18,061 bases of DNA from a candidate division WOR-3 bacterium (GCA_965649115.1 CBFGJN010000040.1:1-18061), one strand, 5' to 3'. Shown: positions 1 through 18,061, counted from the first letter of the stretch. Program-made: numbers and translations. The notes: generated by a model not told the origin, from the sequence alone.

Positions 1-51
1 CTTCCAAAGCTTGAAAATTTTAAAGGGTAATTTTTTTGAAACGAAATATGA

Positions 52-108
52 GCATTTTAGAGCCAAAGCTTTAAAAAATAAGTAATTTTAGAATTACTAG
101 ACACAGCA
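52..108 (+). repeat. Partial copy A of the MITE-like repeat (right end)
   Basis: GCATTTTAGAGCCAAAGCTTTAAA...TTTTAGAATTACTAGACACAGCA matches the hairpin-2 region and right end of copy B. Confidence 0.75.
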
Positions 109-136
109 ATAACTTAAATTTTTTAGACTTTAAAAT
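98..136 (+). promoter_or_regulatory. Putative leaderless promoter of atpA: TAGACA-N27-TAAAAT-N7-ATG
   Basis: Hexamers at 98-103 and 131-136; no Shine-Dalgarno before ATG 144. Confidence 0.65.
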
Positions 137-143
137 TTTCGCT

Positions 144-1943
144 ATGGCTGAAATTACAAGAATAGCTGGTGTTCTTGTTGTTGGAAAAGGATTAAGAGGA
201 GCAAGAATGAATGAGATTGTTAAGGTTGGAAAGGAAAAACTTGTAGGTGAAATAATAAGATTAAAAGGTGATACTGCTTATATTCAAGTTTATGAAGATA
301 CTTCAGGACTTTTCGTGGGTGAGCCAATTGAGAGAACAAATGAATCATTAGCAGTTGAACTTGGTCCTGGTTTACTTGGAAAAGCATTTGATGGAATACA
401 AAGACCATTAGATGTTATAATGAATAAAGTTGGTCCTTTCATAACAAGAGGTATAGATATTCCTGCACTTGATTATGAGAAAAAATGGTTTTTCAAACCA
501 ATTCTTAAAGTTGGTGATAAAGTTAAATTGGGTTATATAATTGGTGAGGTTCAAGAAACACCATCAATTGTCCATAAAATAATGATTCCACCAAATTTAA
601 AAGGTAAAACTGAACTATCAAAAGAGGATTTAGAAGAAACTTTTACAATTTTAGATATTAAGGAAGGTGAATTTACAGTAAAAGAAACAATAGCAATTAT
701 AAGAAGTGATATTGAAAAGAAAGATTATGAGATAAAACTTTCTCATAAATGGCCAGTAAGAATACCAAGACCTGTTATAAAGAAAGAACTGCCAATTATT
801 CCATTATTAACAGGCCAAAGAATTCTTGACACACTATTCCCAATTGCTCTTGGTGGAAATGCTGGTCTTCCTGGTGGTTTTGGAACTGGAAAAACGGTAA
901 CAGAACAAACTCTAGCAAAATATGCTCTCGTTGATGTTGTAGTATATATAGGTTGTGGTGAAAGAGGAAATGAAATGACAGAAGTTCTAACAGAATTTCC
1001 ACACCTTGAAGACCCTTCAAGGCCAGGAGCACCTCTAATGGACAGAACAATATTAGTTGTTAATACATCAAATATGCCCGTTGCTGCAAGAGAAGCATCT
1101 ATATACACAGGTATAACACTTGCGGAGTATTATAGAGATATGGGATATAATGTTTTACTTTTAGCTGACTCAACAAGTAGATGGGCTGAAGCATTAAGAG
1201 AATTATCTTCAAGACTTGAAGAAATGCCTGGAGAAGAAGGTTATCCAACTTATTTATCATCAAAATTAGCTGCGTTTTATGAAAGAACTGGAAGAGTTAA
1301 AACATTAAGTAATTTTGAAGGTTCTGTAACTGCTGTTGGAGCTGTATCTCCACAAGGTGGAGATTATTCAGAACCTGTAACCCAATCAACACTTAGAGTT
1401 GTAGGAGCATTTTGGGCACTTGATTCAAACTTAGCAAGAAGAAGACATTATCCTGCAATAAATTGGTTAAGAAGTTATACACTTTATTATCCATTAATTG
1501 AAAAATGGTACAAACAAAATGTAAATGAGAGATGGAGTGAGCTTAGAAACTTCATCAGCAGTATATTACAAAAAGAAGCAGAATTACAAGATATTGTTCA
1601 GTTAATAGGTCCTGATGCTTTACAAGAAATGGAAAGATTAATTCTTGAAATTGGAAAAATTATAAGACTTGGTTATTTACAACAAAACGCATTTAATCCT
1701 ATTGATGCAAGTTGTTCATTAAAAAAACAATTTTTAATGATGAAAGCAATTTACGATTTCTACAATATCCTTAAATCTGCTATTGAAAGTGAACTTATAT
1801 CTGCTGATGAAATTGAAAAATTGCCACAAGTTGAAAGAATTATAAGATTAAAGGAAGTAGAGGAGGACAAAGTAGAAGAAGAAATAAACAATATCCTAAA
1901 TTCTTTAAAAGAAGAACTAAATCAGAGGGAAAAAGCTGCTTAA
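144..1943 (+). CDS. atpA: V/A-type ATP synthase catalytic subunit A
   Basis: Walker [50 protein letters not shown] and [10 protein letters not shown] motifs; 599 aa including the V/A-type non-homologous region. Confidence 0.98.
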
Positions 1944-3597
1944 TATAATTCTTTCTCAAATACTAATAATTAAAGAAATAAATATCAACGGAAATAATTT
2001 TTTTAACAAAAAAGAAATTTTTGAAATACTAAAAATAAAAGAAAATTCAGAGTTTAGTAAAGTTAGACTAAAAAGTGCAATTTCAAGACTATATAGCAAG
2101 TACTATTCTTTCGGTTTTTTCAATGTTAAAATAAATTACAATTATGAGTTTTTGGAGATGGGAAATGTTGTTATAAGTATAAACATAGATGAAGGTAAAA
2201 GATTTTATATAAAGGAAATTCAATTTGAAGGAGACAGCTTATTAGATACTCTTATTCGCATTATCCCGAAAAAATTACCAATTGCTTATTCTGATGAATT
2301 TGTTAATAATTTTGAAAGTCAAGTTTATTACCTTTACTACAATAATGGATTTCCTTTTGTTAATATATTAAGAGATACCATTCTTGAAAGTGATAGTTTA
2401 ATAACGATTAAGGAGAAAATTAGTGCAGGTAAAAGGATAATAATAAAGCAAATAAAAATTGAAGGAAATAAAAAAGTAAGAGATGCTATATTTTTTAAAG
2501 AAATCACAATAAAAGTTCCAAGCTATTTTAACTATAATCAAATCATTCAATCAATTCAAAGAATATATTCTTTGAGGTTATTTAAAAGTGTAAATTATAA
2601 AATTGAAAATGATAGCATTTTAGTCTTTCAAGTGGTTGAATCACCTGAAAGATATTTAGAAACAAATTTTGGTTTTACATATCCTTACTTTTTAAATATC
2701 AGTTTTCTTATCGGACACTTAAATATATTTGGAAATGTCCAGAATTTAGAACTTATAACAAATGGACTTTTTAGTTGGACAGATAATAAAATTTTATTAA
2801 ATGATAGGTTAATTAGTTTAAATTTTAGAGAACGATATTTTCTTGATATGAAAAATTTATTTCTTAACTCAAATATCATTTATAGTAAAACAGGTCAAAT
2901 TGGGCAGATTGAAGACTACGGTAAAATTGAAGAAATTGGATTAAATGCTGAAATTTTAAGACAATTCTCAAATTACTTTTATAGTGCTTTTAGCATATTG
3001 TTAAAAAATAGTATAACGCTTGGATATGAAGATAGAAGAATTATATTAACATTATCTCAAAGAGTTGTTTATGATGATAGAAATAGCTATTTAGATGCTA
3101 CAAAAGGTTTTGTTTCAAGTTTTTCAATTTCAGAAGCTTTCATTCAAGCAAAATTTATAAAACTTAACGAATTGTATTCAAAGTACTTTTATAGTTTTGC
3201 ATTTAGGATAAGGATGGGTCAAATTTTTGGCAGTGATATTCCGTATTCTGAAAAATTCTTTCTTGGAGGTGAAGGAAGTGTTAGAGGTTATTTAAACAAT
3301 TCAATTGGAGAAACTTTTGATAACTTGCAACCTGCAAGTAATCATTATATAAATGGTAATTTTGAATATAGATGGAGATTTAGCGATTTTTTTGGAATTA
3401 CATTTTTTTATGATTTTGCTATCGTTTCAAACGAATTTATTAATTTAATAAGAAACAATGTTTATAGTGGCTATGGAATTGGATTTCGTTTTTATATTAA
3501 CTTTATACCCATCCGCTTTGATTTCGCGTTAAATCCAGATTCAAAAATTTTACCAAAAGATTTATTTATCTATTTTAGTATAGGACAAATGTTTTAG
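1936..3597 (+). CDS. Omp85 (BamA/TamA) family outer-membrane protein with POTRA domains; start extended upstream of the ORF-track call (2152) to a CTG
   Basis: POTRA-like repeats ([27 protein letters not shown]), [12 protein letters not shown] loop motif, C-terminal FSIGQMF. The frame is open from 1921 (TAA at 1918-1920); CTG at 1936 follows AGAGGGA at 1924-1930. Family is confident, exact start less so. Confidence 0.9.
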
Positions 3598-3616
3598 AAA
3601 TTTGTTTTAATGAACC

Positions 3617-3822
3617 TGCTTTGTCCAATAATTATTGTTAAGCGATTGATAATCAATAATTTATAAAATTTTTAAGGAAATTGTTGATTTATTGGGGGGA
3701 TTATTAGGGGGGCTTCGCCCCCCAAAAGCAAAAAACGGGTATTTTAAAGCCGAAGGCTTAAATTTAGGGTGGGTGGGGAAAATATAGAAATAATCATATT
3801 TTTAGAATTACTAGACAAAACA
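3617..3822. mobile_element. Intact MITE-like element (copy B, 206 bp)
   Basis: Terminal inverted repeats TGCTTTGTCCAATAATT (3617-3633) and AATTACTAGACAAAACA (3806-3822) match at 14/17. Flanked by the exact direct repeat TAATGAACC (3608-3616, 3823-3831). No coding capacity. Confidence 0.85.
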
Positions 3823-3850
3823 TAATGAACCTTATTTTTTGCTTTAAAAT
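3812..3850 (+). promoter_or_regulatory. Putative leaderless promoter of ptsH: TAGACA-N27-TAAAAT-N7-GTG
   Basis: Hexamers at 3812-3817 and 3845-3850; start fixed at 3858 by His15/Ser46 numbering. Confidence 0.65.
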
Positions 3851-3857
3851 TTTAGAA

Positions 3858-4127
3858 GTGTATTACAAAAGGGTAGTAATTGTTAATAAACTTGGAATCC
3901 ATGCAAGACCTGCTACAAAAATTTCGGAAATTGCAAATAAATTTAATTCTGAAATATATATAGAAAAAGATGGAATTTGTGCAAATGCCAAAAGTATCTT
4001 AGGGATATTGATGCTTGTTGCTCCTAAGGGAACTGAACTTATAATAAGAGCAGAAGGACCAGATGAAGTTGAAGCTGTTGAAAGCATAGCAAAACTCATA
4101 GAAGAAGGATTTGGTGAAGAAATATGA
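3858..4127 (+). CDS. ptsH: Phosphocarrier protein HPr
   Basis: GIHARPA and NAKSILG motifs. Starting at GTG 3858 places the phospho-His at residue 15 and the regulatory Ser at residue 46, the canonical numbering, so 3858 rather than 3825 is the start. Confidence 0.96.
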   Translation: MYYKRVVIVNKLGIHARPATKISEIANKFNSEIYIEKDGICANAKSILGILMLVAPKGTELIIRAEGPDEVEAVESIAKLIEEGFGEEI

Positions 4128-5650
4128 ACGAGAAAATAAAGAAATTGGAAGAATTGAAAAAGAAAGCATATGAAGGTGGAGGAAAAAGCAAAATCGAAGA
4201 ACAACACAAAAAAGGCAAATTAACAGCAAGAGAAAGATTAGAGATATTATTAGATGATTTTGATGAAGTGGATTTATTTGTTGTCCATCAAGCTCATGAT
4301 TTTGGAATTGATAAAAAGAAATTCTTAACAGATGGGGTAATAACGGGTTTTGGAATTATTGATGGTAGAAGAGTAGCAGTATTCTCACAAGATTTCACAA
4401 TATTTGGAGGGACAGTATCAAAAACAAATGCTCAAAAAATTGTAAAAATTATGCAAATGGCTCTTAAAGTTGGAATTCCTATAATAGGTTTAAATGATTC
4501 AGGAGGAGCAAGGATACAAGAAGGTGTATCAGCACTTGGAGGATATGGAGATATATTTCTACATAATGTTTTAGCAAGTGGTGTTGTTCCTCAAATATCA
4601 GCAATACTTGGACCTTGTGCAGGTGGAGCGGTTTATTCACCAGCCTTAACTGACTTTATATTTATGAAAAGAGAAACAAGCTATATGTTCATAACAGGTC
4701 CAGATGTTGTAAAAGCAGTAATGCACCAAGATGTAAGTTTTGAAGAGCTTGGAGGAGCAGATGTTCATGCAAGCATATCAGGAATAGCTCATTTTGTTTA
4801 TGATAAAGAAGAAGAATTATTATTATCAATTAGAAAACTTTTAACTTATTTACCTTCAAATAATTTAGAAAATCCACCTTTTGTTCAAACTGATGATGAT
4901 CCAAATCGTGAAATTCCCGAATTAGATGATATTATTCCAATAGAACCAACTGAACCATATGATGTAAAGGAAATTATTAAAAAAGTTTTAGATGAAGAGA
5001 CATTTTTTGAAGTTCAAGAAAATTTTGCTCAAAATATTGTAATTGGATTTGGAAGAATTGGAGGACATGTAGTAGGAATTGTAGCAAATCAACCTTTACA
5101 TTTATCAGGTGCATTAGATATTAAGGCATCTGTAAAAGCTTCAAGATTTGTTAGATTTTGTGATTGCTTCAACATACCAATTATAACATTTGTTGATGTT
5201 CCTGGATTTATGCCAGGTGTTGAGCAAGAACATGGTGGAATTATTAAGGAAGGAGCTAAATTGATTTTTGCTTATGCAGAAGCTACTATTCCAAAAATAA
5301 CAATTGTTTTAAGAAAAGCTTATGGAGGAGCTTATGATGTAATGGGAAGCAAGCATTTAAGAGCGGATATCAATTTAGCTTGGCCAAGTGCGGAAATAGC
5401 AGTTATGGGACCAGAAGGAGCAGTTAAAATTCTATATAAAAAGGAAATAGAAAAACTTGAAAATTTAAATGAGTTTATAAAAGAATATAGAGAAAAATTT
5501 GCTAATCCTTATTATGCTGCAAGTTTAGGATTTATAGATGATGTTATAAGACCTTCTAAAACAAGAAAAATTATTTACAATTATCTTCAACTTCTTGAAA
5601 ATAAAAGACAAACATTACCATATAAAAAACATTCAAACGAACCCCTGTGA
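4124..5650 (+). CDS. Acyl-CoA carboxyltransferase subunit (propionyl-CoA carboxylase beta / methylmalonyl-CoA decarboxylase alpha family)
   Basis: GKLTARER, DSGGARIQEG, GPCAGGAVYSPALTD, DVPGFMPG, RKAYGGAY and C-terminal KKHSNEPL; ATGA overlap with the HPr stop. Confidence 0.95.
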   Translation: MNEKIKKLEELKKKAYEGGGKSKIEEQHKKGKLTARERLEILLDDFDEVDLFVVHQAHDFGIDKKKFLTDGVITGFGIIDGRRVAVFSQDFTIFGGTVSKTNAQKIVKIMQMALKVGIPIIGLNDSGGARIQEGVSALGGYGDIFLHNVLASGVVPQISAILGPCAGGAVYSPALTDFIFMKRETSYMFITGPDVVKAVMHQDVSFEELGGADVHASISGIAHFVYDKEEELLLSIRKLLTYLPSNNLENPPFVQTDDDPNREIPELDDIIPIEPTEPYDVKEIIKKVLDEETFFEVQENFAQNIVIGFGRIGGHVVGIVANQPLHLSGALDIKASVKASRFVRFCDCFNIPIITFVDVPGFMPGVEQEHGGIIKEGAKLIFAYAEATIPKITIVLRKAYGGAYDVMGSKHLRADINLAWPSAEIAVMGPEGAVKILYKKEIEKLENLNEFIKEYREKFANPYYAASLGFIDDVIRPSKTRKIIYNYLQLLENKRQTLPYKKHSNEPL

Positions 5651-6744
5651 AAATTGCTATATTTTCTGAAAGTTTTCTACCCTTAAAAACAGGTGTTGCA
5701 AAATTCACATATGATTTATGCTATTACTTAAAGAAAAGAGGACATGATGTTATTTTGATAACAGGAGATTTTGGAATTAATTACAATTTTGATTTTGAGG
5801 TTGTAAGAATTGGAAAAATTTCAAAAATTTATGCTAATGGAAGTTGGACTTATTTTATATTACAAAATCCTATTTCTTTCTATGAGAATTTAAAGAAAGT
5901 TTTAAATTATTATAAAATTGAAATTTTTCATAATCAGGGACCTCTTGGACCACCATATTCTGTATTAAGTTCATTTTTTGCTAAAAAAATAAACAAAAAC
6001 ATAAAAACAATTGGAACATTTCACTCAAAACAAATGAAAATAACCACTAGCTTAAAGCTATATTCAAATTTTGTTAAAAAATTCATAAATTACAACGATA
6101 TTTTAACCGCTCCAAGTAAATCAACTGCTAATGAAATGAAATATATATTTAATGTAAATCCTATTGTAATTCCAAATGGTATAAATTTAGAAAAATTTAA
6201 TTGTAATTGTAAAAAATTTGAAGATAATTCATTTAAAATTTTGTATGTTGGAAGACTTGATTATAGAAAAGGTGTTGATATTCTTTTAAAGGCATTTGAA
6301 AAAATAAATAATGATAAATTTGAGCTTTGGATTGTAGGAAGTGGTCCTTATAAAAAAATTGTTCTTGAATACATTGAAAAATATAAAAATATAAAACTTT
6401 TTGAAAATGTTGAAGATGAAGAATTAGTTAATTTTTATAGTAATTGTGATATTTGTGTTTTTCCAACAAGAGGAGGTGAGGCTTTTGGCATTGTCTTGCT
6501 TGAAGCATTTGCTTGTGGTAAGCCTGTAATATGTTCAAACATAGATGGTTATAATGAGGTTGCTAATGAAGATTGTGCTTTATTTTTTAAGAATATGGAT
6601 TATGAAGATTTAGCAAACAAAATTCTTTTGTTATATAATAATAAAAATTTAAGAGAAAAACTTTCAAAAAACGCCCTTCAAAGAGCTAAAAATTTTGATT
6701 GGAACAAAATTGTTTTAGAATTTGAGAAGACATATCTTATATAA
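5647..6744 (+). CDS. Glycosyltransferase family 4 (GT-B, PimA/RfaB-like)
   Basis: MKIAIFSESFLP..GV N-terminus, VIPNGI, YVGRLDYRKG, and GGEAFGIVLLEA (EX7E motif); GTGA overlap with the upstream stop. Confidence 0.93.
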   Translation: MKIAIFSESFLPLKTGVAKFTYDLCYYLKKRGHDVILITGDFGINYNFDFEVVRIGKISKIYANGSWTYFILQNPISFYENLKKVLNYYKIEIFHNQGPLGPPYSVLSSFFAKKINKNIKTIGTFHSKQMKITTSLKLYSNFVKKFINYNDILTAPSKSTANEMKYIFNVNPIVIPNGINLEKFNCNCKKFEDNSFKILYVGRLDYRKGVDILLKAFEKINNDKFELWIVGSGPYKKIVLEYIEKYKNIKLFENVEDEELVNFYSNCDICVFPTRGGEAFGIVLLEAFACGKPVICSNIDGYNEVANEDCALFFKNMDYEDLANKILLLYNNKNLREKLSKNALQRAKNFDWNKIVLEFEKTYLI

Positions 6745-6844
6745 TTTTCTATATTTTGCTCACCCACCCTGAATTTAAGCCTTCCGCTTATAAATGCCCA
6801 TTTTTCGGCAGAGGGGGGCTTTGCCCCCTGAATTCCTCCATAAA
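6741..6844 (-). repeat. Internal fragment copy C of the MITE-like repeat, inverted, between convergent genes
   Basis: TTTCTATATTTTGCTCACCCACCCTGAATTTAAGCCTTCCGCTT...GGGGGGCTTTGCCCCC is the near reverse complement of 3690-3795. Confidence 0.85.
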
Positions 6845-6852
6845 GTCCATAT

Positions 6853-7279
6853 TCAGTCGTTTGGGTCAAGTGGAGGACAAGTACACTCGTAATAACAGGC
6901 TCCACTTGTACAACCTGCAAGGGGGCAGGTTATCCAATGATGACAATATCTTTCATAACTATAACAAGTCACAATGTACAGAGAGCAATGAGAACAACCC
7001 TTTTTTCAAAATTTTGAAATTGTTTATTTCTTTAACCTTACAAGATGCATTATTCAAAAATATTGAAAATTGATAGTTGTAGATTTTGTTTTTTGAGATA
7101 AAAGCAAGCGTATAAGACTCGTTATTTTTAGCAATAGTAAATAGGTCTTTATTTTCATGACTAAAAAGCTTATCTTCAATAAGATAAAACATTTATTTAT
7201 AAGTTGTACCTTGCAAAGACTTATTAAGGGGATTTACAAATAAACTGATTTGTGTGTAATAAAGTCCCCCAACCTCAAA
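6853..7279 (-). pseudogene. Interrupted ORF: 77-aa ORF (7192-6959) preceded by an in-frame stop and followed, after a +1 shift, by a 48-codon frame with 9 Cys
   Basis: Minus-strand translation of 6999-6853 gives GCSHCSLYIVTCYSYERYCHHWITCPLAGCTSGACYYECTCPPLDPND*. It joins the upstream ORF if one base is removed from the A6G3 run at 7006-6998. 28 further open codons precede the TAA next to ATG 7192. Confidence 0.45.
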
Positions 7280-7280
7280 A

Positions 7281-10130
7281 TTATTTCACATAAAATTTTG
7301 TCCTTTGATCTTCAACATCAACAATATATGCTCCCGACTTTAAATTATTATCAATCGTTATTTCATTTATACCTTTCAATTTAACATCAAATTCCTTTTC
7401 AAGGACGATTCTTCCTGAAAAATCAAAAATTCTTATTTTGTAATTTTTTATCTCATCTGCATAGAATCTAATTGTAAATTTTTGACTTTGCTTAATAGGA
7501 TTCGGATAAACTAAAATGTTAATTTTTTTAATACTTGGAAAATCTGAAATCTCATTATAATTTAAAAATGAATAAAATAACCGATTATTTGAGATTAAAG
7601 ACCAAAAATAAATGTTATTTTTAATATCAGAATAAGCAAAAGTACTATCTGTTATTATTGGATAAACTTCATTAAAACCTTTTGAGTAGTTAAAAATGAA
7701 TGAATTGAAAATGATATTTGTATCTGAACTTAAAGCAAATGAAGTTCTTTCACTTATAAAGCCCATCAAAGCACCGTTGAAATCATATTTATAAATTCCA
7801 TTTTTTGTAATTACTAAAATTCCATTTTGAAAATAACTTAAAGCAATAGGCTTACTTTTTAAACGGACTTGATTTAAAACATCTAAATTTCTATTTAGTA
7901 TCCAAAGATAATTATTTGTAGCTGTAAAAATTCTATCTTTTAAGATAATAGGCATTATTTCAATAGGATTTGGTAAAATTTCAAGTTCTTTTGATTTTAT
8001 TATATTTAATTCACCATCAATAATATAGAATGTTCCATCAATTCCTTGAAGATAAATTGTATCATTTTTAATTAAGAAACATGTTGAAATAGGAAAGCTT
8101 AAATAAACTGACTTATAAATTGTTTGACTTACTGGATTAAATAAAATAAGTTTTCCTTCATCTGTTCCAAAAAGGATATAATTTTTTAGTTTTCTTAAAC
8201 AACTTCTAATTGGAAAATTAACATTCTTTGTCCAATTATTTGAAAATGTGTTTGAAATTAAAAAACTATATAAATTACCATCAGTTCCTCCTAAATAAAC
8301 CTCATAAGTTCCATTATTATCAAAGTCTTCAATAATCGGTGGATATTTAAATAAATAGGGATAGAATGTGAAATCTCTAAATTGAATGAATGTTTTAACC
8401 AATGGTTGATTATAATAGCTTTGACCATTCTTTTTAAAAAGATAAAGTTCAGAGTAAATTCTAACGCTATTTGTATTTTTATCAAGTGTATCAATATGAC
8501 CATCAAAAAGAACAATAATTAAGCTATCTTTTAAATTAAAAAATTGCCTTTGAAACTTATAATTTTCATTACCAAAATAAATTTTTGATAATTTTTCATT
8601 TTTAATTTTAAAACTCATAATGTTTGAAACACTCGATATATCGTAAATTTCAAAACCTGTCAATTTATTTTCATTTGATTTGATTGAAGGATAAGTGAAA
8701 TCACTTATGCTATTTCTATTACCATTATAAAATGGATCATATTTTGAACCTTTCCAACCTTCTGGAAACTTTATAAAATATTGAAAATCTGGAACGCCAT
8801 CTGCTTCAATTAAAACAACACCCATTGGTCTATTACTTTGAAAATCAGGCCCTAAACTATCTATGATATTCCTATCAACATGCCATATTAAAATTCCTTC
8901 ACCAGGTAAGGCATAATCCCATTCCTCATCATATATACCAAATATTAACGAACTATCATTATTGTAAATAAAATTAACTTTTTTATCTTCAATTTTTTCT
9001 CTTTTTCTAAACTCAATTAAAAGATATTCTTTATTATCAAATTCAATTTTATAAAATTGTGGATAAAATGAAGATGGAAGGATATTAAATACTTGTTCAT
9101 TTTTAGAAGGTTGAATTTTTACAAGTTCATTAGGCATAATAATTCTTTGACATGATGGACAAATTAAATTTAATATGCTATCCATATAAATTTTTGTATA
9201 TGCACCTGGTAATGTCGGTAAATAACCCTCTGGAATGTTATCAATATCTCCACCATAACCACCAACAGCCATTAAATCAAAATAACCTGCTCCTGTCCCA
9301 AGTCCCGAATAATCATATAAATCATCAACAAAGAAAATTAAGTGATTTAATTCATGAACAGCTGTTCCTTGAAGTCCTATATTTAAACCATCTTGTCTTA
9401 GTGTTTGTGGAATTAATGTTGCATCATAAATTGTATCATTTCCATTATTCACAATAATATAAGGTTCTCCAAGATAATAATCTAATGCTCCTGCAAAAAT
9501 TGTAAGAGCTGGCAAATCATAAGGTGTATCACCATTTACATCAGTTTGATAAGCTGAACCTGCATAAAATATAACAATTCTTCTAAATATAAGCTCACCA
9601 GGTTGTGGATTACAATAAGCTAAATTATTATTTGAAAATATACCCATTTGATCAGCACTTCTAATAGCATCTCTAAAAAATGATGTTATACCTTGTGCGA
9701 AAAATCCTAAATCTCCATAATATCTAATTTTATGTGGAACTTTAACAATAGGAGAAACTGAATATTTAAATTTAATTCTATGATAAGTTGCAGAGAGAAA
9801 GTAATTTTTTGAAAACTCTAAAATTGAAGAAAAATATAAGCTATCATAAGGTGGTTTGAAATCAAAAGTTCCCTTAATACCATAACTTGTTGTATCAAAT
9901 GTTCCATCACCAGTAGTAAGTGGATCATCGGGGATTTCTTTTTGAAATTCAACTCTTAATGCCAATATACAAATTGTTAAGGTATCGTTTTGAAAAGTAC
10001 CAAATTTATTTTTATAAAATTTAAGTTGGTTTATCCTTTTATTGAAAAATAGCATTTGCTTTTCAACATAAGAAAATTTTTCAAATAGCTTTTTATTTAA
10101 ATCCAAATTGCTAAAAAGAAATAAAATCAT
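7281..10130 (-). CDS. Secreted M6 (immune inhibitor A)-like zinc metalloprotease with beta-propeller-like region and T9SS/Por-type C-terminal sorting domain
   Basis: ILALRVEF, HELNH..DDLYD zinc motif (9356-9342), FDLMAVG Met-turn-like, EYLLIEFR, GILIWHVD, LIEADG; C-terminal VYPNP...IRIFDFSGRIV...LKSGAYIV. Confidence 0.88.
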   Translation of the reverse strand: MILFLFSNLDLNKKLFEKFSYVEKQMLFFNKRINQLKFYKNKFGTFQNDTLTICILALRVEFQKEIPDDPLTTGDGTFDTTSYGIKGTFDFKPPYDSLYFSSILEFSKNYFLSATYHRIKFKYSVSPIVKVPHKIRYYGDLGFFAQGITSFFRDAIRSADQMGIFSNNNLAYCNPQPGELIFRRIVIFYAGSAYQTDVNGDTPYDLPALTIFAGALDYYLGEPYIIVNNGNDTIYDATLIPQTLRQDGLNIGLQGTAVHELNHLIFFVDDLYDYSGLGTGAGYFDLMAVGGYGGDIDNIPEGYLPTLPGAYTKIYMDSILNLICPSCQRIIMPNELVKIQPSKNEQVFNILPSSFYPQFYKIEFDNKEYLLIEFRKREKIEDKKVNFIYNNDSSLIFGIYDEEWDYALPGEGILIWHVDRNIIDSLGPDFQSNRPMGVVLIEADGVPDFQYFIKFPEGWKGSKYDPFYNGNRNSISDFTYPSIKSNENKLTGFEIYDISSVSNIMSFKIKNEKLSKIYFGNENYKFQRQFFNLKDSLIIVLFDGHIDTLDKNTNSVRIYSELYLFKKNGQSYYNQPLVKTFIQFRDFTFYPYLFKYPPIIEDFDNNGTYEVYLGGTDGNLYSFLISNTFSNNWTKNVNFPIRSCLRKLKNYILFGTDEGKLILFNPVSQTIYKSVYLSFPISTCFLIKNDTIYLQGIDGTFYIIDGELNIIKSKELEILPNPIEIMPIILKDRIFTATNNYLWILNRNLDVLNQVRLKSKPIALSYFQNGILVITKNGIYKYDFNGALMGFISERTSFALSSDTNIIFNSFIFNYSKGFNEVYPIITDSTFAYSDIKNNIYFWSLISNNRLFYSFLNYNEISDFPSIKKINILVYPNPIKQSQKFTIRFYADEIKNYKIRIFDFSGRIVLEKEFDVKLKGINEITIDNNLKSGAYIVDVEDQRTKFYVK

Positions 10131-11602
10131 CCACTAATAAACCTATTTAAAACATTATTAACAAAATCAAGGACAATTGAAGGATAAATTCCTATAAAAA
10201 TTACAAGAACTAAACATAAAGCAGTTATGAACAATGGTAAATAAGCAAATTTAACCTCCTTTTCGCCATCAGAGAAAACATAATAAACTACTCTTAAATA
10301 ATAATAATAAGAGATAACACCATTAATAAAGAGCCAAATTGCAAGTCCAATATCACCAACATTGACAATAGAATAAGCAATATAAAATTTCGCAAAGAAA
10401 CCTGCAAGGGGAGGGATACCTGCAAGTGAAAGCATAAATAAAGCAAAGCTAATTGCTATAAATGGACTTTTCTTATATAAACCTTTTAAATTTTCTATGC
10501 TTGTGTCATCTTCAGCTACCATTTGAACAATTGAAAATGCTCCGAATGTTGTTATTGTATAAATGAATAAAAATAATATAATTGATTTAAAACCTTCAAT
10601 TCCTCCCGAATAAATTGCTGTTAATCCATAACCAGCATTAGCAATCGTTGAAAATGCTAATAATTTTTTAATACTATTTTCTCTTATAGCAGCCAAATTA
10701 CCAATAATCATAGTAAAAACACTAATCCATAAAATTAAATCTTCCCATAGCTTTGGATATGAACTAAAAACACCTTGAAACAGTTTTAGAACAATTGCAA
10801 ATGCAGCCGCTTTTGATATTGTTGAAATATAACTTGCAGTTGGAGATGGGGAACCTTCAAATACATCAGGTGTCCAGAAATGAAAAGGAACAGCAGATAA
10901 TTTAAAACCAAGACCCACAATTAGAAATCCTATTGCGATAATTGATAAGAAATCCTTTGATTTAAGTAATCCAAAGAAACTTCTAAAAGCATAATTTTGA
11001 AATAAACTCTCAAATGACAAACTACCACTAACAAAATATAGAAATGCTATTCCTACTATCAAAAAGGAGCTTGAAAATGCCCCAATAAAAAAGTACTTTG
11101 TTGCTGCTTCATAAGAAAATAAACTTCTTTTATATCCTACAAGAGCATATAATGAAAACGAAAGAATTTCAAGTGATAAAATAAAAACTGCCCAATTCTC
11201 ACTTTTTGGAAGCAACATTGAACCAAGAAGAGCAGAAAATATAAGGAAATAATAATCACCACCAGACCTATTTTTATAATAATCATAAGATAGCATTACA
11301 AAGAAAATTGTTCCAATTAAGAAAATTAAATCAAATAATCTTTCAATTGGTCCAAATTTTAAACTTTCAATTATATATTTTGCATATTCATAATTTTGAG
11401 CAGTTTTAAGTAATTCTTGAAAAAACTCCTTATTCATTTTAAGTAACTGTTCAAAAACAAAATAGGTTGAAATAAATAAAAGAATTAAAGAAATCAAAAA
11501 AGCTATTAAACCTTTCCTTGGAAAAAGAATTTCTATAATTAAAAGTAATATAATACCAATTGAAACTGTTATTTCAGGTGAAAAGAAGTAAAAGATGTTC
11601 AT
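10127..11602 (-). CDS. nuoN: NADH-quinone oxidoreductase subunit N
   Basis: Polytopic membrane protein with EAATKYF, GFKLSAVPFHFWTPDVFEGSP, SLAGIPPLAGFFAKF and YYYLRV. Confidence 0.96.
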   Translation of the reverse strand: MNIFYFFSPEITVSIGIILLLIIEILFPRKGLIAFLISLILLFISTYFVFEQLLKMNKEFFQELLKTAQNYEYAKYIIESLKFGPIERLFDLIFLIGTIFFVMLSYDYYKNRSGGDYYFLIFSALLGSMLLPKSENWAVFILSLEILSFSLYALVGYKRSLFSYEAATKYFFIGAFSSSFLIVGIAFLYFVSGSLSFESLFQNYAFRSFFGLLKSKDFLSIIAIGFLIVGLGFKLSAVPFHFWTPDVFEGSPSPTASYISTISKAAAFAIVLKLFQGVFSSYPKLWEDLILWISVFTMIIGNLAAIRENSIKKLLAFSTIANAGYGLTAIYSGGIEGFKSIILFLFIYTITTFGAFSIVQMVAEDDTSIENLKGLYKKSPFIAISFALFMLSLAGIPPLAGFFAKFYIAYSIVNVGDIGLAIWLFINGVISYYYYLRVVYYVFSDGEKEVKFAYLPLFITALCLVLVIFIGIYPSIVLDFVNNVLNRFISG

Positions 11603-13059
11603 TTTTCACCTCCTTTTTTTATAATACTCACAATATGTTCAGAAGGTTTTTGTAAAAATTTAAAAATGAAATTTGGATATATTCCAATAGAAAAAATAAG
11701 AATAATTAATGGCGTTAAGATAAACCATTCTCTTATGTTCAAATCTTTGATTTTTTCAAATTTAATTTCAAGATATGATATTTTCTGAAATGCAGGAAGC
11801 ATATAAATAACAGAAATAACAATTCCTAAAACTGCAAATATAGCCCAAGAAAAATTCTTCAAACTTACACCAAGAAGAATAAGAAACTCTCCAATAAATC
11901 CATTAGTTCCAGGAAGACCGACTGATGATAACATAAATAAACCAAAGAAAACAATTAAAACAGGAACTGTCTTAGCAAGACCTCCAAATTCAGAAATACT
12001 ATTCGTTTTAAATCTTTCATATAGAAATCCTGAAACTAAAAATAAAGCAGATATTATTATTCCGTGATTTAGAATTTGGATACTTGCTCCATTTATTCCA
12101 TAACTATTTAGTGAAAATATTCCAAGTGTAATAAAGCCCATATGTGAAAATGAAGAAAAAGCAATTAACCTCTTAAAGTTATCTTGAACATAAGCCATAA
12201 ATCCACCATAAATGATTGAAATTATTGATAAAATAGCAAAAATATAAGCATAATCAATTGAATAACTTGGAAATAGAGGAATTAAAAATCTTAAAAAACC
12301 ATAACTTCCAATTTTTGCCATAATACCTGCAATAATTAATGCCACACTACTTGGAGCGTTAGTATAAGCATCAGGAAGCCATGCATGGAAGGGGAAAATT
12401 GGTGTTTTTACAGCAAAAGCAATTGCAAAGGAAACAAAAATTAGTAATCCTAAATTATCTTTTAGTAGTGGAATTTGTTCTAATAAATCCAAATAATTTA
12501 AAGTCCTAAATTGTAAGTAAATGATAATTATTGAAACAATAAGTAAAACAGAAGCAAAAGCTGTATATAATAGAAATTTAAAACTTGCTTTAACTTTATC
12601 ATTATCACCCCAAATTAAAATTAAAAAATAAGCAGGAATTAAAGAAAATTCGTAAAAAACAAAAAATAAGAATAAATTTAGTGAAGAAAAAACACCAACT
12701 AATGAACCAGTTAAAAACAAATACCAAAACGCAAATTCATTTTCTCTATTTTTAATTAAATTAATTGAAGAAAGAAAGCCTAAAAAAGATAAAAATGTTG
12801 TTAAAACAATAATTAGATAACTTAAACCATCAACGCCAAGATAGTAATCTATATTTAGACTTTCTATCCATTTATATCTCTCAATAAATTGGAAATTCTC
12901 AGAAAAATTAAAATTTCCAAGAGGTAAAAGACTTAACAAAAATTCAAATAATAGAACAACAGACGACCAAATCCAAACAAAGTTCCTATTCTTTATAAGC
13001 AGTAAAAGCAAAGATGAAAAAATAGGGAAAAATATAAGAATAGTTAAAATCCCATTCAT
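11599..13059 (-). CDS. nuoM: NADH-quinone oxidoreductase subunit M
   Basis: LGVDGLS, FFVFYE, AFAVKTPIFPFHAWLPDA, KRLIAFSSFSHMG and GLPGTNGFIGEF motifs; AGGAGG ribosome-binding site at 13071-13066. Confidence 0.96.
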   Translation of the reverse strand: MNGILTILIFFPIFSSLLLLLIKNRNFVWIWSSVVLLFEFLLSLLPLGNFNFSENFQFIERYKWIESLNIDYYLGVDGLSYLIIVLTTFLSFLGFLSSINLIKNRENEFAFWYLFLTGSLVGVFSSLNLFLFFVFYEFSLIPAYFLILIWGDNDKVKASFKFLLYTAFASVLLIVSIIIIYLQFRTLNYLDLLEQIPLLKDNLGLLIFVSFAIAFAVKTPIFPFHAWLPDAYTNAPSSVALIIAGIMAKIGSYGFLRFLIPLFPSYSIDYAYIFAILSIISIIYGGFMAYVQDNFKRLIAFSSFSHMGFITLGIFSLNSYGINGASIQILNHGIIISALFLVSGFLYERFKTNSISEFGGLAKTVPVLIVFFGLFMLSSVGLPGTNGFIGEFLILLGVSLKNFSWAIFAVLGIVISVIYMLPAFQKISYLEIKFEKIKDLNIREWFILTPLIILIFSIGIYPNFIFKFLQKPSEHIVSIIKKGGEK

Positions 13060-13065
13060 TTTCTT

Positions 13066-13095
13066 CCTCCTTTTGAAAAGTTCAAAATTTTATAG
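13066..13095 (-). promoter_or_regulatory. Putative -10 box (CTATAAAATTTT) and AGGAGG ribosome-binding site of nuoM
   Basis: Minus-strand TAAAAT at 13092-13087 in the same context as the other -10 boxes, followed by a short leader with a strong Shine-Dalgarno. Confidence 0.55.
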
Positions 13096-13156
13096 CTTAA
13101 AAAATTTTCATAAGAACACAAAAGCCGCCAGCAGAAAAATGAGTATTCTAATGATT

Positions 13157-13217
13157 TAATTTATAAAAATTTTTTTGAAATTATGGGCGGGAAAATAAAG
13201 AATTATTGGACACAGCA
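13157..13217 (+). repeat. Internally deleted copy D of the MITE-like repeat
   Basis: TAATTTATAAAAATTTT (as at about 3657-3673) joined to TGGGCGGGAAAATA..AGAATTATTGGACACAGCA (right end). Confidence 0.75.
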
Positions 13218-13243
13218 AAAAATCCAAATTTAAACTTTAAAAT
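13207..13243 (+). promoter_or_regulatory. Putative leaderless promoter: TGGACA-N25-TAAAAT-N8-GTG
   Basis: Hexamers at 13207-13212 and 13238-13243; GTG at 13252; no Shine-Dalgarno. Confidence 0.6.
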
Positions 13244-13251
13244 TTCGCAAA

Positions 13252-13974
13252 GTGATTACTTTTCTTTTTTCTACAATTGTAAGGCAGGAAACTTTTGGTA
13301 TTTCAAGTTTTCTAATTCCTGATGAAAATGAAAGAGTAGTTTTCCCATCTTCACAAACATTATTTTCTAATGTTATTCAATTTGAAATTACATATAAAAG
13401 TGCATTTTTTACATTTCCAATCCTTGAAAATTTAAATTATAGTTTTTATTTTGATACAATTTATGGAATTGGCACAGCTTATAAATTTGAAAATTTTTCA
13501 TTAGGCTTTAATGGTTTTAAGTTAGATAGTGAATTTTTGTTTAATTTTGGTGCTTATGTAAATTACAATAATTTTGAAAGTAAGTTTTCTTTAAATTATA
13601 AAAATAATCAGAACTTTGGTTTAAGAAGTTTTTTTAAATTGTCATTCTTTGAGCAATATAGCTCAAGATTATATTTAGAATACCAAAATAATTTAGATGC
13701 TATTATTGGAATTTTTTATGAACCTTCTAAATATAGATTTTTAAGTTTTGGATTATCAAAAATTGATAATAACTATTTTTCTTTTAGTAGTTTAGAAGTC
13801 TTAATTTTTAGAGATTTTTTAACACTTAGAGGGAGTGTTTATGAAGACCTTAAAAACAATAAGTTATTCTTAAATTATGGCTTTTCAATAAGTTATGAAA
13901 ACTTGAGAGGTGATTTTATTGTAAATAAAGATGCTTTCAAGTTGGGAATTTATTATAAATTTAATATGTTTTAG
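13252..13974 (+). CDS. Hypothetical protein, probable outer-membrane beta-barrel
   Basis: 240-aa ORF rich in aromatic residues and Gly with alternating amphipathic strands (FSLGFNG, FNFGAYVNY, LNYGFSISY, FKLGIYYKF) and a terminal Phe. Confidence 0.65.
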   Translation: MITFLFSTIVRQETFGISSFLIPDENERVVFPSSQTLFSNVIQFEITYKSAFFTFPILENLNYSFYFDTIYGIGTAYKFENFSLGFNGFKLDSEFLFNFGAYVNYNNFESKFSLNYKNNQNFGLRSFFKLSFFEQYSSRLYLEYQNNLDAIIGIFYEPSKYRFLSFGLSKIDNNYFSFSSLEVLIFRDFLTLRGSVYEDLKNNKLFLNYGFSISYENLRGDFIVNKDAFKLGIYYKFNMF

Positions 13975-14014
13975 TTTATTTTAATAGTTGAATGATTGCT
14001 GGATTTTTAAGAAA

Positions 14015-14087
14015 TAAAGCTGAAAGCTTATTTTCAGGGTGGGAAAAATAAGAAATAATGATATTTTCAGAATTATTGGACATAGCA
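14015..14087 (+). repeat. Partial copy E of the MITE-like repeat (right half)
   Basis: TAAAGCTGAAAGCTTATTTTCAGGGTGGGAAAAATAAGAAATAATGATATTTTCAGAATTATTGGACATAGCA aligns with 3745-3822. Confidence 0.85.
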
Positions 14088-14115
14088 CCCCCAAAGCATA
14101 GTTATCGTTTAAAAT
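14077..14115 (+). promoter_or_regulatory. Putative short-leader promoter: TGGACA-N27-TAAAAT-N11-ATG
   Basis: Hexamers at 14077-14082 and 14110-14115; ATG at 14127. Confidence 0.6.
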
Positions 14116-14126
14116 TTTCTATACTT

Positions 14127-14441
14127 ATGATTTTGCTTTTTATAAATTGTATATGTCAAAATTTAAATTTCTTTCAAGCTCTTGAAAAAGCAGATATGGT
14201 ATTTGAGGGGATTTTAGTAAAAAGTGATAGTTTATTGACTTTTAAAGTTATAAATTCTATAAAACAAACAAGTGATACACTTTTAGTAATTTATAATGAT
14301 AATGAATGCCCCTATAACTTTGAATTGAATAAATTATATAGGGTTTTTGTTAAAAAGGAGGGAAATAAATTAATAACAGATAAATGTTTTGGTAATGAAA
14401 AGATTGAAGATTATGAGGAAATTAGAGACTATTCAGAATGA
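14127..14441 (+). CDS. Small exported protein of TIMP/NTR-like (OB-fold) type
   Basis: CxC near the N-terminus followed by ADMVFEG, ECPYNF...YRVF and a fourth Cys (DKC), the pattern of prokaryotic N-TIMP homologues. ATG 14127 is preferred because ATG 14058 lies inside the repeat, upstream of the -10 box. Confidence 0.7.
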   Translation: MILLFINCICQNLNFFQALEKADMVFEGILVKSDSLLTFKVINSIKQTSDTLLVIYNDNECPYNFELNKLYRVFVKKEGNKLITDKCFGNEKIEDYEEIRDYSE

Positions 14442-17494: not shown

Positions 17495-17562
17495 TGCTTT
17501 GTCCATAGCCTTATTTTCAGAGTGGGCGGGGAAAATAAGGAATAATCATATTTAATTTGACA
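17495..17562 (+). repeat. Internally deleted copy F of the MITE-like repeat directly upstream of the rRNA promoter
   Basis: Left end TGCTTTGTCCA followed by CTTATTTTCAGAGTGGGCGGGGAAAATAAGGAATAATCATATTT; the right end is degenerate. Confidence 0.8.
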
Positions 17563-17595
17563 ATTTGAATCATTTTTGAACTTGTGCTTTAAAAT
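17557..17595 (+). promoter_or_regulatory. Putative rRNA promoter: TTGACA-N27-TAAAAT
   Basis: Perfect TTGACA at 17557-17562 and GCTTTAAAATTTT with the hexamer at 17590-17595; no TAnnnT at 16-18 bp spacing. Confidence 0.6.
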
Positions 17596-17657: not shown

Positions 17658-18061
17658 TTTATGGAGGGTTTGATCCTGGCTCAGGGTTAACGCTAGCAGC
17701 GTGCCTTAGCCATGCAAGTCGTGCGGGCTGGGGGCAACCCCAGTCAGCGGCGGACGGCGGAGTAACACGTGACTAACCTGCCCCTAGGAGGGGGATAACC
17801 CACCGAAAGGTGGGCTAATACCCCGTACTGTGGATGGGTGAAATTCCCATCCATGAAAGAGGGCCCTCTGGGCTCTCGCCTAGGGAGGGGGTCGCGGCCC
17901 ATCAGCTAGTTGGTGGGGTAAAAGCCCACCAAGGCTATGACGGGTAGCCGGCGTGAGAGCGCGGCCGGCCCGAGGGGCACTGAGACACGGGCCCCACCCC
18001 TACGGGGGGCAGCAGGCTGGAAATTTGGGCAATGGGGGAAACCCTGACCCAGCGACGCTGC
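17658..18061 (+). rRNA. rrs: 16S rRNA gene, 5' part (runs off the window)
   Basis: AGGGTTTGATCCTGGCTCAG at 17665-17684, CATGCAAGTC, GAGTAACACGT, CAGCTAGTTGGTGGGGTAA, CACTGAGACACGG and CCTACGGGGGGCAGCAG; 5' end approximate. Confidence 0.99.

Follow-up and report, generated by a model that had tools for sequence, protein, structure and literature searches.

An IS903-like insertion sequence and its miniature derivatives appear to integrate at fixed distances from host promoters in a candidate division WOR-3 bacterium

Element copies and promoters in the window

We analyzed a stretch of 18,061 nt (the window), which is contig C40 of genome G000, a candidate division WOR-3 bacterium (1.85 Mb, 27.6% G+C, 99 contigs). 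The window carries several copies of a miniature inverted-repeat transposable element (MITE), and we found that their right ends lie at a nearly constant distance upstream of the hexamer TAAAAT, a putative -10 box in front of host genes. Positions are those of the whole window, and features lie on the + strand unless stated otherwise.

The window starts inside the first copy (copy A), whose right part covers 1-108. Its right terminal repeat stops at 108 and belongs to repeat family D1 (83-108). The promoter of the gene for the V/A-type ATPase catalytic subunit follows at 109-143, where a host spacer of 22 nt (109-130) leads to TAAAAT at 131-136 and, after another 7 nt, to the ATG at 144. The gene itself (144-1940) matches the Pfam families PF00006, PF22919, PF16886 and PF02874. 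Copy B is a complete MITE of 206 bp (3617-3822) with inverted terminal repeats (left TGCTTTGTCCAATAATT..., right ...AATTACTAGACAAAACA), and it is flanked on both sides by a perfect 9-bp target duplication, TAATGAACC (left copy 3608-3616, right copy 3823-3831). The right duplication copy and the promoter of the HPr gene together occupy 3823-3857, with 13 nt of host DNA after the duplication, TAAAAT at 3845-3850 and a further 7 nt before the GTG at 3858. The HPr gene (3858-4124) matches PF00381.

Two truncated copies have kept their right part, and the left boundary of each is undefined. One (13157-13217; families D1 and D15) ends at 13217, and the host promoter behind it (13218-13251) consists of a 20-nt spacer, TAAAAT at 13238-13243 and 8 nt before the GTG at 13252. 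The other (14017-14087; families D1, D2 and I10) ends at 14087 and is followed by a host promoter (14088-14126) with a 22-nt spacer, TAAAAT at 14110-14115 and 11 nt before the ATG at 14127. These four ends share the sequence ...AATTA(C/T)T(A/G)GACA.A.CA, which the repeat search grouped as family D1. The first-pass annotation had placed the right ends at 108, 3822, 14087 and 13217, at distances of 22, 22, 22 and 20 nt from TAAAAT, with the same end always toward the downstream gene and the duplication of copy B filling the first part of the gap. Direct reading of the window agreed with every coordinate, with the common orientation in all four cases and with the perfect 9-bp duplication.

We also identified a fifth case that the annotation had not listed. 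A short degenerate MITE copy (17496-17567) has the left repeat TGCTTTGTCCA, an internal GGG...AATAATCATATTT block and family D2 at 17528-17553; its right end has decayed, with GACA at 17559-17562. It lies 22 nt before the TAAAAT (17590-17595) of the 16S rRNA promoter (17568-17595), and the 16S gene runs from 17658. The 16S rRNA (17658-18061 in the window) is very G+C-rich although the genome has a low G+C content, as in thermophiles.

An internal MITE fragment without recognizable terminal repeats was found on the - strand at 6746-6833 (I1, 78% complementary to 3703-3790). It lies past the stop of the gene at 5647-6744, and there is no promoter at this place. Beside it is a stretch richer in G+C (6834-6990), where open reading frames (ORFs) overlap on both strands (6756-7073 on the + strand; 6678-6920 and 6959-7192 on the - strand). 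A role of the MITE as a terminator or structured RNA was considered and is unsupported: copy B contains no terminator-like site, its fold is not significant (z -1.4), and rRNA was the only Rfam family matched.

Spacing and orientation across the genome

The end motif was searched in the whole genome with at most 2 mismatches, and the reversed genome served as the control. This search returned 926 matches, compared with 11 in the reversed genome. Among the 913 ends with full flanking sequence, the pattern TTTAAA[AC]TT placed TAAAAT at 22 nt in 133 cases, at 21 nt in 41 and at 13-16 nt in 65. No box was found within 80 nt of 617/913 ends, many of which adjoin another element.

Ends were then classed as right-type or left-type by their inner sequence. 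About 460 right-type MITE ends are present in the genome; 154/460 lie 21-22 nt from a box, 55/460 lie at 13-16 nt, and 118/460 adjoin another element at 8-9 bp. Chance would place about one of the 460 at 21-22 nt (binomial p about 1e-285). Only 1/262 left-type ends was found at this distance (Fisher p 7e-34 against the right-type ends). These spacing counts for right ends are minima, because many of the 100 right ends scored as having no box carry variant boxes (CCTTAAAAT, CTTTATAAT, CATTAAAAT) at 21-23 nt when inspected by eye.

We also counted from the side of the promoters. A promoter-like site was defined as a box with a start codon 6-11 nt later and an ORF of at least 60 aa, and 573 such sites were found in the genome. 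An element end lies at 21-22 nt in 160 of them, at 13-16 nt in 58 and elsewhere within 80 nt in 43, while 312 have no end. More than a third of the sites (218/573) are thus occupied in one of two registers, a main one at 21-22 nt and a rarer second one at 13-16 nt (about 14 nt). When the 116 elements with verified duplications were followed, with chains traced to their end, 85 were found at one of the two registers (65 at 21-23 nt, 20 at 13-16 nt), and inspection by eye showed variant boxes for at least 5 others. Right ends of different sequence variants showed no association with the register (22 or 14 nt). As an origin of the 14-nt class, another box 8 nt further downstream was considered and was unconvincing by eye.

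The alignment of all genomic copies on their right end thus bore out the spacing and the orientation that had been noticed in the window. Neither random distances nor random orientations were found genome-wide.

The box is part of the host site

Target duplications were examined in 247 paired elements of up to 400 bp, with shifted positions as the control. Perfect 9-bp duplications flank 100/247 of them, and 19 have a duplication with one mismatch; no shifted position gave a duplication with 0-1 mismatch. The order at the sites is the right end, the 9-bp duplication, about 10-13 nt of variable host DNA and the box, and the variable stretch differs at every site. The box thus lies beyond the duplicated target sequence and belongs to the host. 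Eighteen solo insertions have a left flank other than an element; in these the left flank and the 9-mer were uninformative, and CTTTAAAATTTT to the right carried all the information.

Empty sites in related genomes support this conclusion. The ATPase promoter in the congeners G001, G003 and G004 has the same box and start codon, and the element is absent; the sites orthologous to the HPr promoter are empty in G001 and G003. The ATPase promoter of G002 carries an independent insertion in the 14-nt register. In a 781-kb sample of the element-free congener G004, the end motif was matched only 10 times, which is chance level, and the box was enriched as in G000 (470 copies compared with 159-191 for 10-mers of the same composition). 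A BLAST match in this sample was obtained for 89 of the 218 occupied promoters, and 77 could be evaluated: 64 keep the box without an element, 13 lack the box, and no element was found at any of the 77. The statement in the first-pass annotation that the -10 box belongs to the target therefore holds, both from its position outside the duplication and from the boxes kept at empty sites of G001, G003 and G004.

These data also bear on the possibility that the box is carried inside the mobile unit, so that the element is a mobile promoter cassette with an internal spacing. Constant spacing and orientation would then follow trivially. However, the 9-bp duplication separates the right end from the box, the 10-13 nt between the two vary from site to site, and the same genes have the same boxes in congeners without the element. 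The duplications and empty sites rule the cassette out, and we give it practically no weight.

Two further observations were made at these promoters. The gene upstream of the V-ATPase operon (window 1-143, loci L022-L025) differs in all five congeners, while promoter and gene are conserved; gene order seems to break right at promoters. At G004 loci L105-L144, many intergenic regions have two back-to-back boxes (AAATTTTAAAG ... CTTTAAAATTT) 10-30 bp apart, which are divergent promoters in very short spacers.

Nature of the box and the promoters

We found 1154 copies of TTTAAAATTT in the genome, compared with 417-432 for 10-mers of the same composition, and 573 copies of CTTTAAAATTT. An ORF of at least 60 aa starts 6-11 nt after the hexamer in 392 copies of TTTAAAATTT (in the window, for example, 131-146, 3845-3860 and 13238-13254). 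The box was also found just upstream of 31/45 tRNA genes and of the 16S gene. Judged solely by where it lies, ahead of start codons, tRNAs and rRNA, the box is probably the -10 element of the main promoter class. Since the start codons lie 6-11 nt after the hexamer, most mRNAs of this organism would be leaderless.

Upstream of about 9 nt before the hexamer, the 312 unoccupied promoters contain no information. A match to TTGACA of at least 5/6 at 17-19 bp was found in only 16 of them. The sigma-A factor (541 aa; contig C12, L102 589-2214) has a canonical, intact region 4.2 although the promoters have no -35 element.

Some side observations concern transcription and tRNA maturation. Among the tRNA genes of G000 (for example C6:17644-17717 and C2:48301-48376), 17 of the 31 with the box have a hexamer that ends only 7-11 nt before the predicted 5' end of the tRNA, and the leader would be 0-3 nt. 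In the family of the window, RNase P RNA (RF00010) was found in 0/7 genomes, which are 87-96% complete (no search was aimed at a protein-only enzyme), compared with 24/24 genomes in the other families of the class. This looks like a lineage-specific loss or replacement of this RNA. One metatranscriptome contained 14% of the sampled sequence words.

Arrays of elements at one site

Many elements adjoin each other. We identified 121 junctions of exactly 9 bp between adjacent elements, of which 96 join a right end to a left end, 2 are left-left and 2 are right-right. There are 94 multi-element chains, 69 of them intact, and the intact chains end 21-22 nt from a box in 49 cases and at 13-16 nt in 12. 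In 36 chains every spacer is the same 9-mer as the promoter-proximal duplication. Array members are unequal in length (for example 202, 150 and 158 bp), and therefore represent separate insertions rather than tandem duplications. Some two-element arrays (for example chains on the - strand of C1 and C4 and on the + strand of C5) have an A-B-A arrangement, in which the outer 9-mers match and the inner spacer differs, as if a MITE dimer had transposed as one unit through its outer repeats.

The arrays could also arise if the transposase preferred sites 9 bp from a sequence like the tip of the terminal repeat (TGCTTT), and this preference would explain the 13-16 nt class as a second rule. The 121 exact junctions, with a right end against a left end, fit this idea. 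In the 14-nt class, moreover, the duplication adjoins TGCTT+TAAAAT, and TGCTT precedes the box in 28% of the class, compared with 12-14% elsewhere. But the arrays carry the promoter-proximal 9-mer and 61/69 end at a box, as repeated targeting of the promoter predicts. TGCTT is absent from 72% of the 14-nt class, and the preference cannot account for the first insertions or for the main class. We therefore consider this explanation unlikely, and the TGCTT sequence, a mimic of the repeat tip, is no more than a hint that the 13-16 nt class may follow another targeting rule.

The parent insertion sequence

The MITEs are short and non-coding: 245 paired elements of 60-330 bp (mode 200-209 bp) amount to 45.9 kb. 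We also found an autonomous insertion sequence (IS) that shares their ends and has the same placement relative to promoters. In G000, 26/198 contig ends lie inside this IS; 16 stop about 100 nt into identical sequence that includes the right repeat, and 10 stop in sequence of the left repeat. The interior of the IS has evidently been lost from the assembly, probably when short contigs were dropped (the smallest contig has 2807 bp). No autonomous copy was found in the assembly, where 19 pairs of repeats lie 400-4000 bp apart and none has a duplication or a transposase.

By eye, 11/16 right ends of the IS lie 21-22 nt from a box, 3 adjoin MITEs and 2 lie elsewhere; a stricter regular expression counts 8. 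None of the 10 left ends is near a box. The ends of the copies are identical (100% over 122-127 nt at 8/10 contig ends, and all 16 right ends), and the IS copies therefore look recent.

Inward from the left end of the IS, a box-like promoter is followed by the start of an ORF, P0001, of which 56 aa of the N-terminus are present. A Pfam search of this 56-aa fragment gave no match. Its only longer relative in the database is P0002 (300 aa), which is 92% identical over the 56 aa and whose C-terminus corresponds to the residues encoded just inside the right end of the IS. P0002 matches PF01609 (88.9 bits), PF13737 (73.5 bits) and NF033579 (245.5 bits, cut-off 140), is made up of standard IS5 domains over its whole length, without an additional domain, and aligns with the IS903B transposase over 96% of its length at 26-27% identity. 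The terminal repeats are identical to those of IS903B (read from L101) at 14/18 positions. These similarities identify the autonomous parent as an IS5-family, IS903-like IS, with one DDE transposase of 300 aa as read from the database relative. From the two ends and an ORF of 300 aa, its length would be about 1.05 kb. The left and right repeats and the 9-bp duplication are common to the IS and the short elements, and the latter are MITEs of about 140-210 bp derived from the IS. A target-selector protein or a multi-gene module as in Tn7 was not found, and between ends about 1.05 kb apart there is room for only one gene of 300 aa.

Occurrence in related DNA

Related ISs were found in metagenome contigs, with transposases 61-88% identical, and in 6/7 of their right ends the distance to a box is 21, 22 or 14 nt. 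The boxes at these ends are TAAAAT, TATACT, TATAAT and TAAACT, and the sites include a leadered EF-Tu promoter. A sister metagenome-assembled genome carries the same elements with the same spacing. Across 64 genomes of the class, the composite pattern of end, spacer and box occurred 133 times in G000, 30 times in G002 and never in the other 62; the backwards control gave 0. In 40 relatives, the DNA of the left end of the IS gave matches to the repeat tip only, and only in G002. No relatives of the transposase were found in the set of genome contigs.

Proposed mechanism and alternatives

Site- and orientation-specific integration of the IS903-like IS and its MITEs beside host promoters is very probable, and the anchoring to promoters is well supported. 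The right ends lie at set distances from the box and face the promoter, the box is host DNA, one 9-mer is used repeatedly, and the transposase belongs to the IS5 family. The way in which the distance is measured can be proposed as follows. The anchor would be the host -10 element CTTTAAAATTT(T), which would drive leaderless mRNAs, tRNAs and rRNA. In the main register the staggered cut places the duplicated 9-mer at nt 22-14 before the T of TAAAAT, and in the minor register at about 14-6 nt before TAAAAT, with the right end of the element always toward the promoter. If transcription begins some 7 nt past the hexamer, the junction of the main register would be at about -35/-34 and the duplication at about -34 to -26, and the core promoter would be kept whole. 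The first-pass annotation had suggested insertion where the -35 region lies. The position agrees with this suggestion, but there is no -35 element there to destroy. Since there is no -35 element and the DNA from about -34 downstream is preserved, the site would be a safe harbour open to repeated hits, and repeated hits would yield head-to-tail arrays with identical 9-bp spacers.

Several ways of reading the anchor were weighed. Direct contact of the DNA-binding domain of the transposase with the duplex motif has close to, though somewhat under, an even chance in our estimate, which takes note that the IS encodes only a transposase of standard length. Tethering to the transcription machinery is a more tentative candidate: the transposase would dock on sigma-A, RNA polymerase or another protein at the -10-only promoter and cut at the upstream edge of the complex, in analogy to Ty3 integrase with TFIIIB. 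In its favor, the determinant is found on one side only, 15-26 bp away from the middle of the 9-bp target, and the usual target contacts of DDE transposases lie closer in. There is no information in the left flank or the 9-mer, different hexamers (TAAAAT, TAAACT, TATAAT, TATACT) are used at the same distance, and tRNA, rRNA, leaderless and leadered promoters are all used. The junction at about -35/-34 is where sigma region 4 would end, and region 4.2 of sigma-A is intact. On the other hand, the 300-aa transposase consists of standard IS5 domains only, a promoter-bound polymerase would cover -34 to -26, exactly the DNA that is cut, and tRNA promoters are not hit above average (about 9/31 by eye, compared with 218/573). 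An intrinsic distortion of the A4T4 tract as the anchor signal is improbable, and some other reader is less probable again.

Near-random insertion followed by selection has to be considered as well, in which copies are kept when their right end forms a hybrid promoter or an UP-like module in phase with the -10 box. The terminal repeat does contain a TTGACA-like hexamer (TAGACA or TGGACA), which in the 13-16 nt class lies at a near-canonical 18-21 bp from the box; the truncated copies in the window retain their right end; sigma-A could read a -35 element; and only survivors are visible. In the main class, however, the hexamer lies 27 bp from the box (the hexamer, 5 nt and 22 nt), beyond the 16-19 bp working range between -35 and -10 of sigma-70 promoters, and an outward -35 hexamer within that range of the resident -10 was found only in the 13-14 nt class (18-19 bp). 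The 312 promoters without an end in G000 and 64/77 orthologs in G004 function without an upstream element. Of 261 ends within 80 nt upstream of promoter-like sites, 218 fall in two registers, and the other 43 are spread over positions that would be equally harmless. One 9-mer was reused in 36 arrays, and recent-looking IS copies are already at the site in 11/16 cases. Selection for hybrid promoters alone is unlikely, and we place its probability below that of every reader of the anchor named above.

A number of points weigh against promoter-anchored integration as set out here. About 15/116 elements with verified duplications sit where no box was seen, and 7 are ambiguous, so that targeting is not absolute. 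The 13-16 nt register has no explanation in this scheme, with TGCTT before the box in little more than a quarter of its members. The terms -10 box and leaderless are both taken from position alone. P0002 comes from the database and is tied to the IS of G000 only by its 56-aa N-terminus and the matching C-terminal residues, and L031 (922 bp), the one related DNA copy of full length, is degenerate and broken. Occupancy is about equal among hexamers (CTT+TAAAAT 95/227, CTT+TAAACT 8/18, CTT+TATAAT 4/12), and a C precedes the box in 95% of occupied and 81% of unoccupied sites; both observations fit DNA read-out as well as protein tethering. Finally, all copies that can be seen have passed selection, and a bias of insertion cannot be fully separated from a bias of survival, especially for the strict orientation.

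Comparison with known systems

In terms of family, this is an ordinary IS903-like IS accompanied by MITEs, and what sets it apart is its choice of target at promoters. In the open literature, at the level of abstracts and by term look-up in PMC12542636 and PMC12285271, we found no description of promoter-anchored insertion of an IS or MITE or of MITEs in this lineage. A plain IS903-type DDE transposase appears to place the element to the nucleotide, in one orientation, beside promoters. This offers a system in which to test how a minimal transposase gauges its distance from an asymmetric anchor, and it illustrates how about 460 elements can be carried in a compact genome without damage to genes. 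The elements are natural promoter tags in an uncultured lineage, and they may explain rearrangements next to promoters. If the anchor is DNA, the enzyme would be a compact integrase of programmable distance. If polymerase or another protein on the -10-only promoter guides it, this would be the first bacterial counterpart of Ty3-type integration; an IS family would then have settled over a third of the promoters of a genome and broken none, and there would be a natural single-protein system that inserts DNA at a defined base upstream of promoters.

Bacterial ISs are generally regarded as having little target selectivity, and those that insert precisely rely on a dedicated selector protein (Tn7), on a guide RNA (IS110, CAST) or on single-strand motifs (IS200/IS605). 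The target preference of IS903 itself is only weak, roughly palindromic and centred on its 9-bp target duplication. The likeness to IS903 lies in a DDE transposase of about 300 aa with PF13737 and PF01609 and in the length (1057 bp for IS903B, from L101, and about 1.05 kb estimated here). Here, unlike in IS903, a promoter element on one side, 13 bp past the duplication, is the determinant and sets the orientation.

ISs that form hybrid promoters (IS1, IS2, IS30, IS257, ISAba1) likewise have an outward TTGACA-like hexamer, and in our minor class it lies 18-21 bp from the resident -10. Those are rare, selected events at single genes, whereas here 218/573 sites are occupied in two fixed registers, with the hexamer of the main class 27 bp off. 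IS1397/ISKpn1 and IS110/IS1111 elements are specific for REP, a short and highly repeated intergenic motif of the host. They insert inside the repeat, the IS110 type by means of a guide RNA and a DEDD enzyme, whereas here a DDE enzyme inserts beside a promoter motif.

Tn7, directed by TnsD, inserts at attTn7, a harmless site, where both its distance from a conserved host sequence and its orientation are fixed. The fixed distance and the single orientation are found here too, but Tn7 has a dedicated target selector and one site per genome, whereas this IS has one standard transposase and hundreds of sites with a short motif. Ty3 and the Dictyostelium element TRE5-A integrate within a few nucleotides of a fixed point at Pol III genes, guided by the promoter-bound complex, which provides a safe harbour in gene-dense genomes. 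They are eukaryotic retroelements tethered to TFIIIB, whereas the element described here is a bacterial DDE element for which tethering to the polymerase is only a candidate. The target rule thus resembles that of Tn7 at attTn7 or Ty3 at Pol III genes in its outcome, and not in its machinery.

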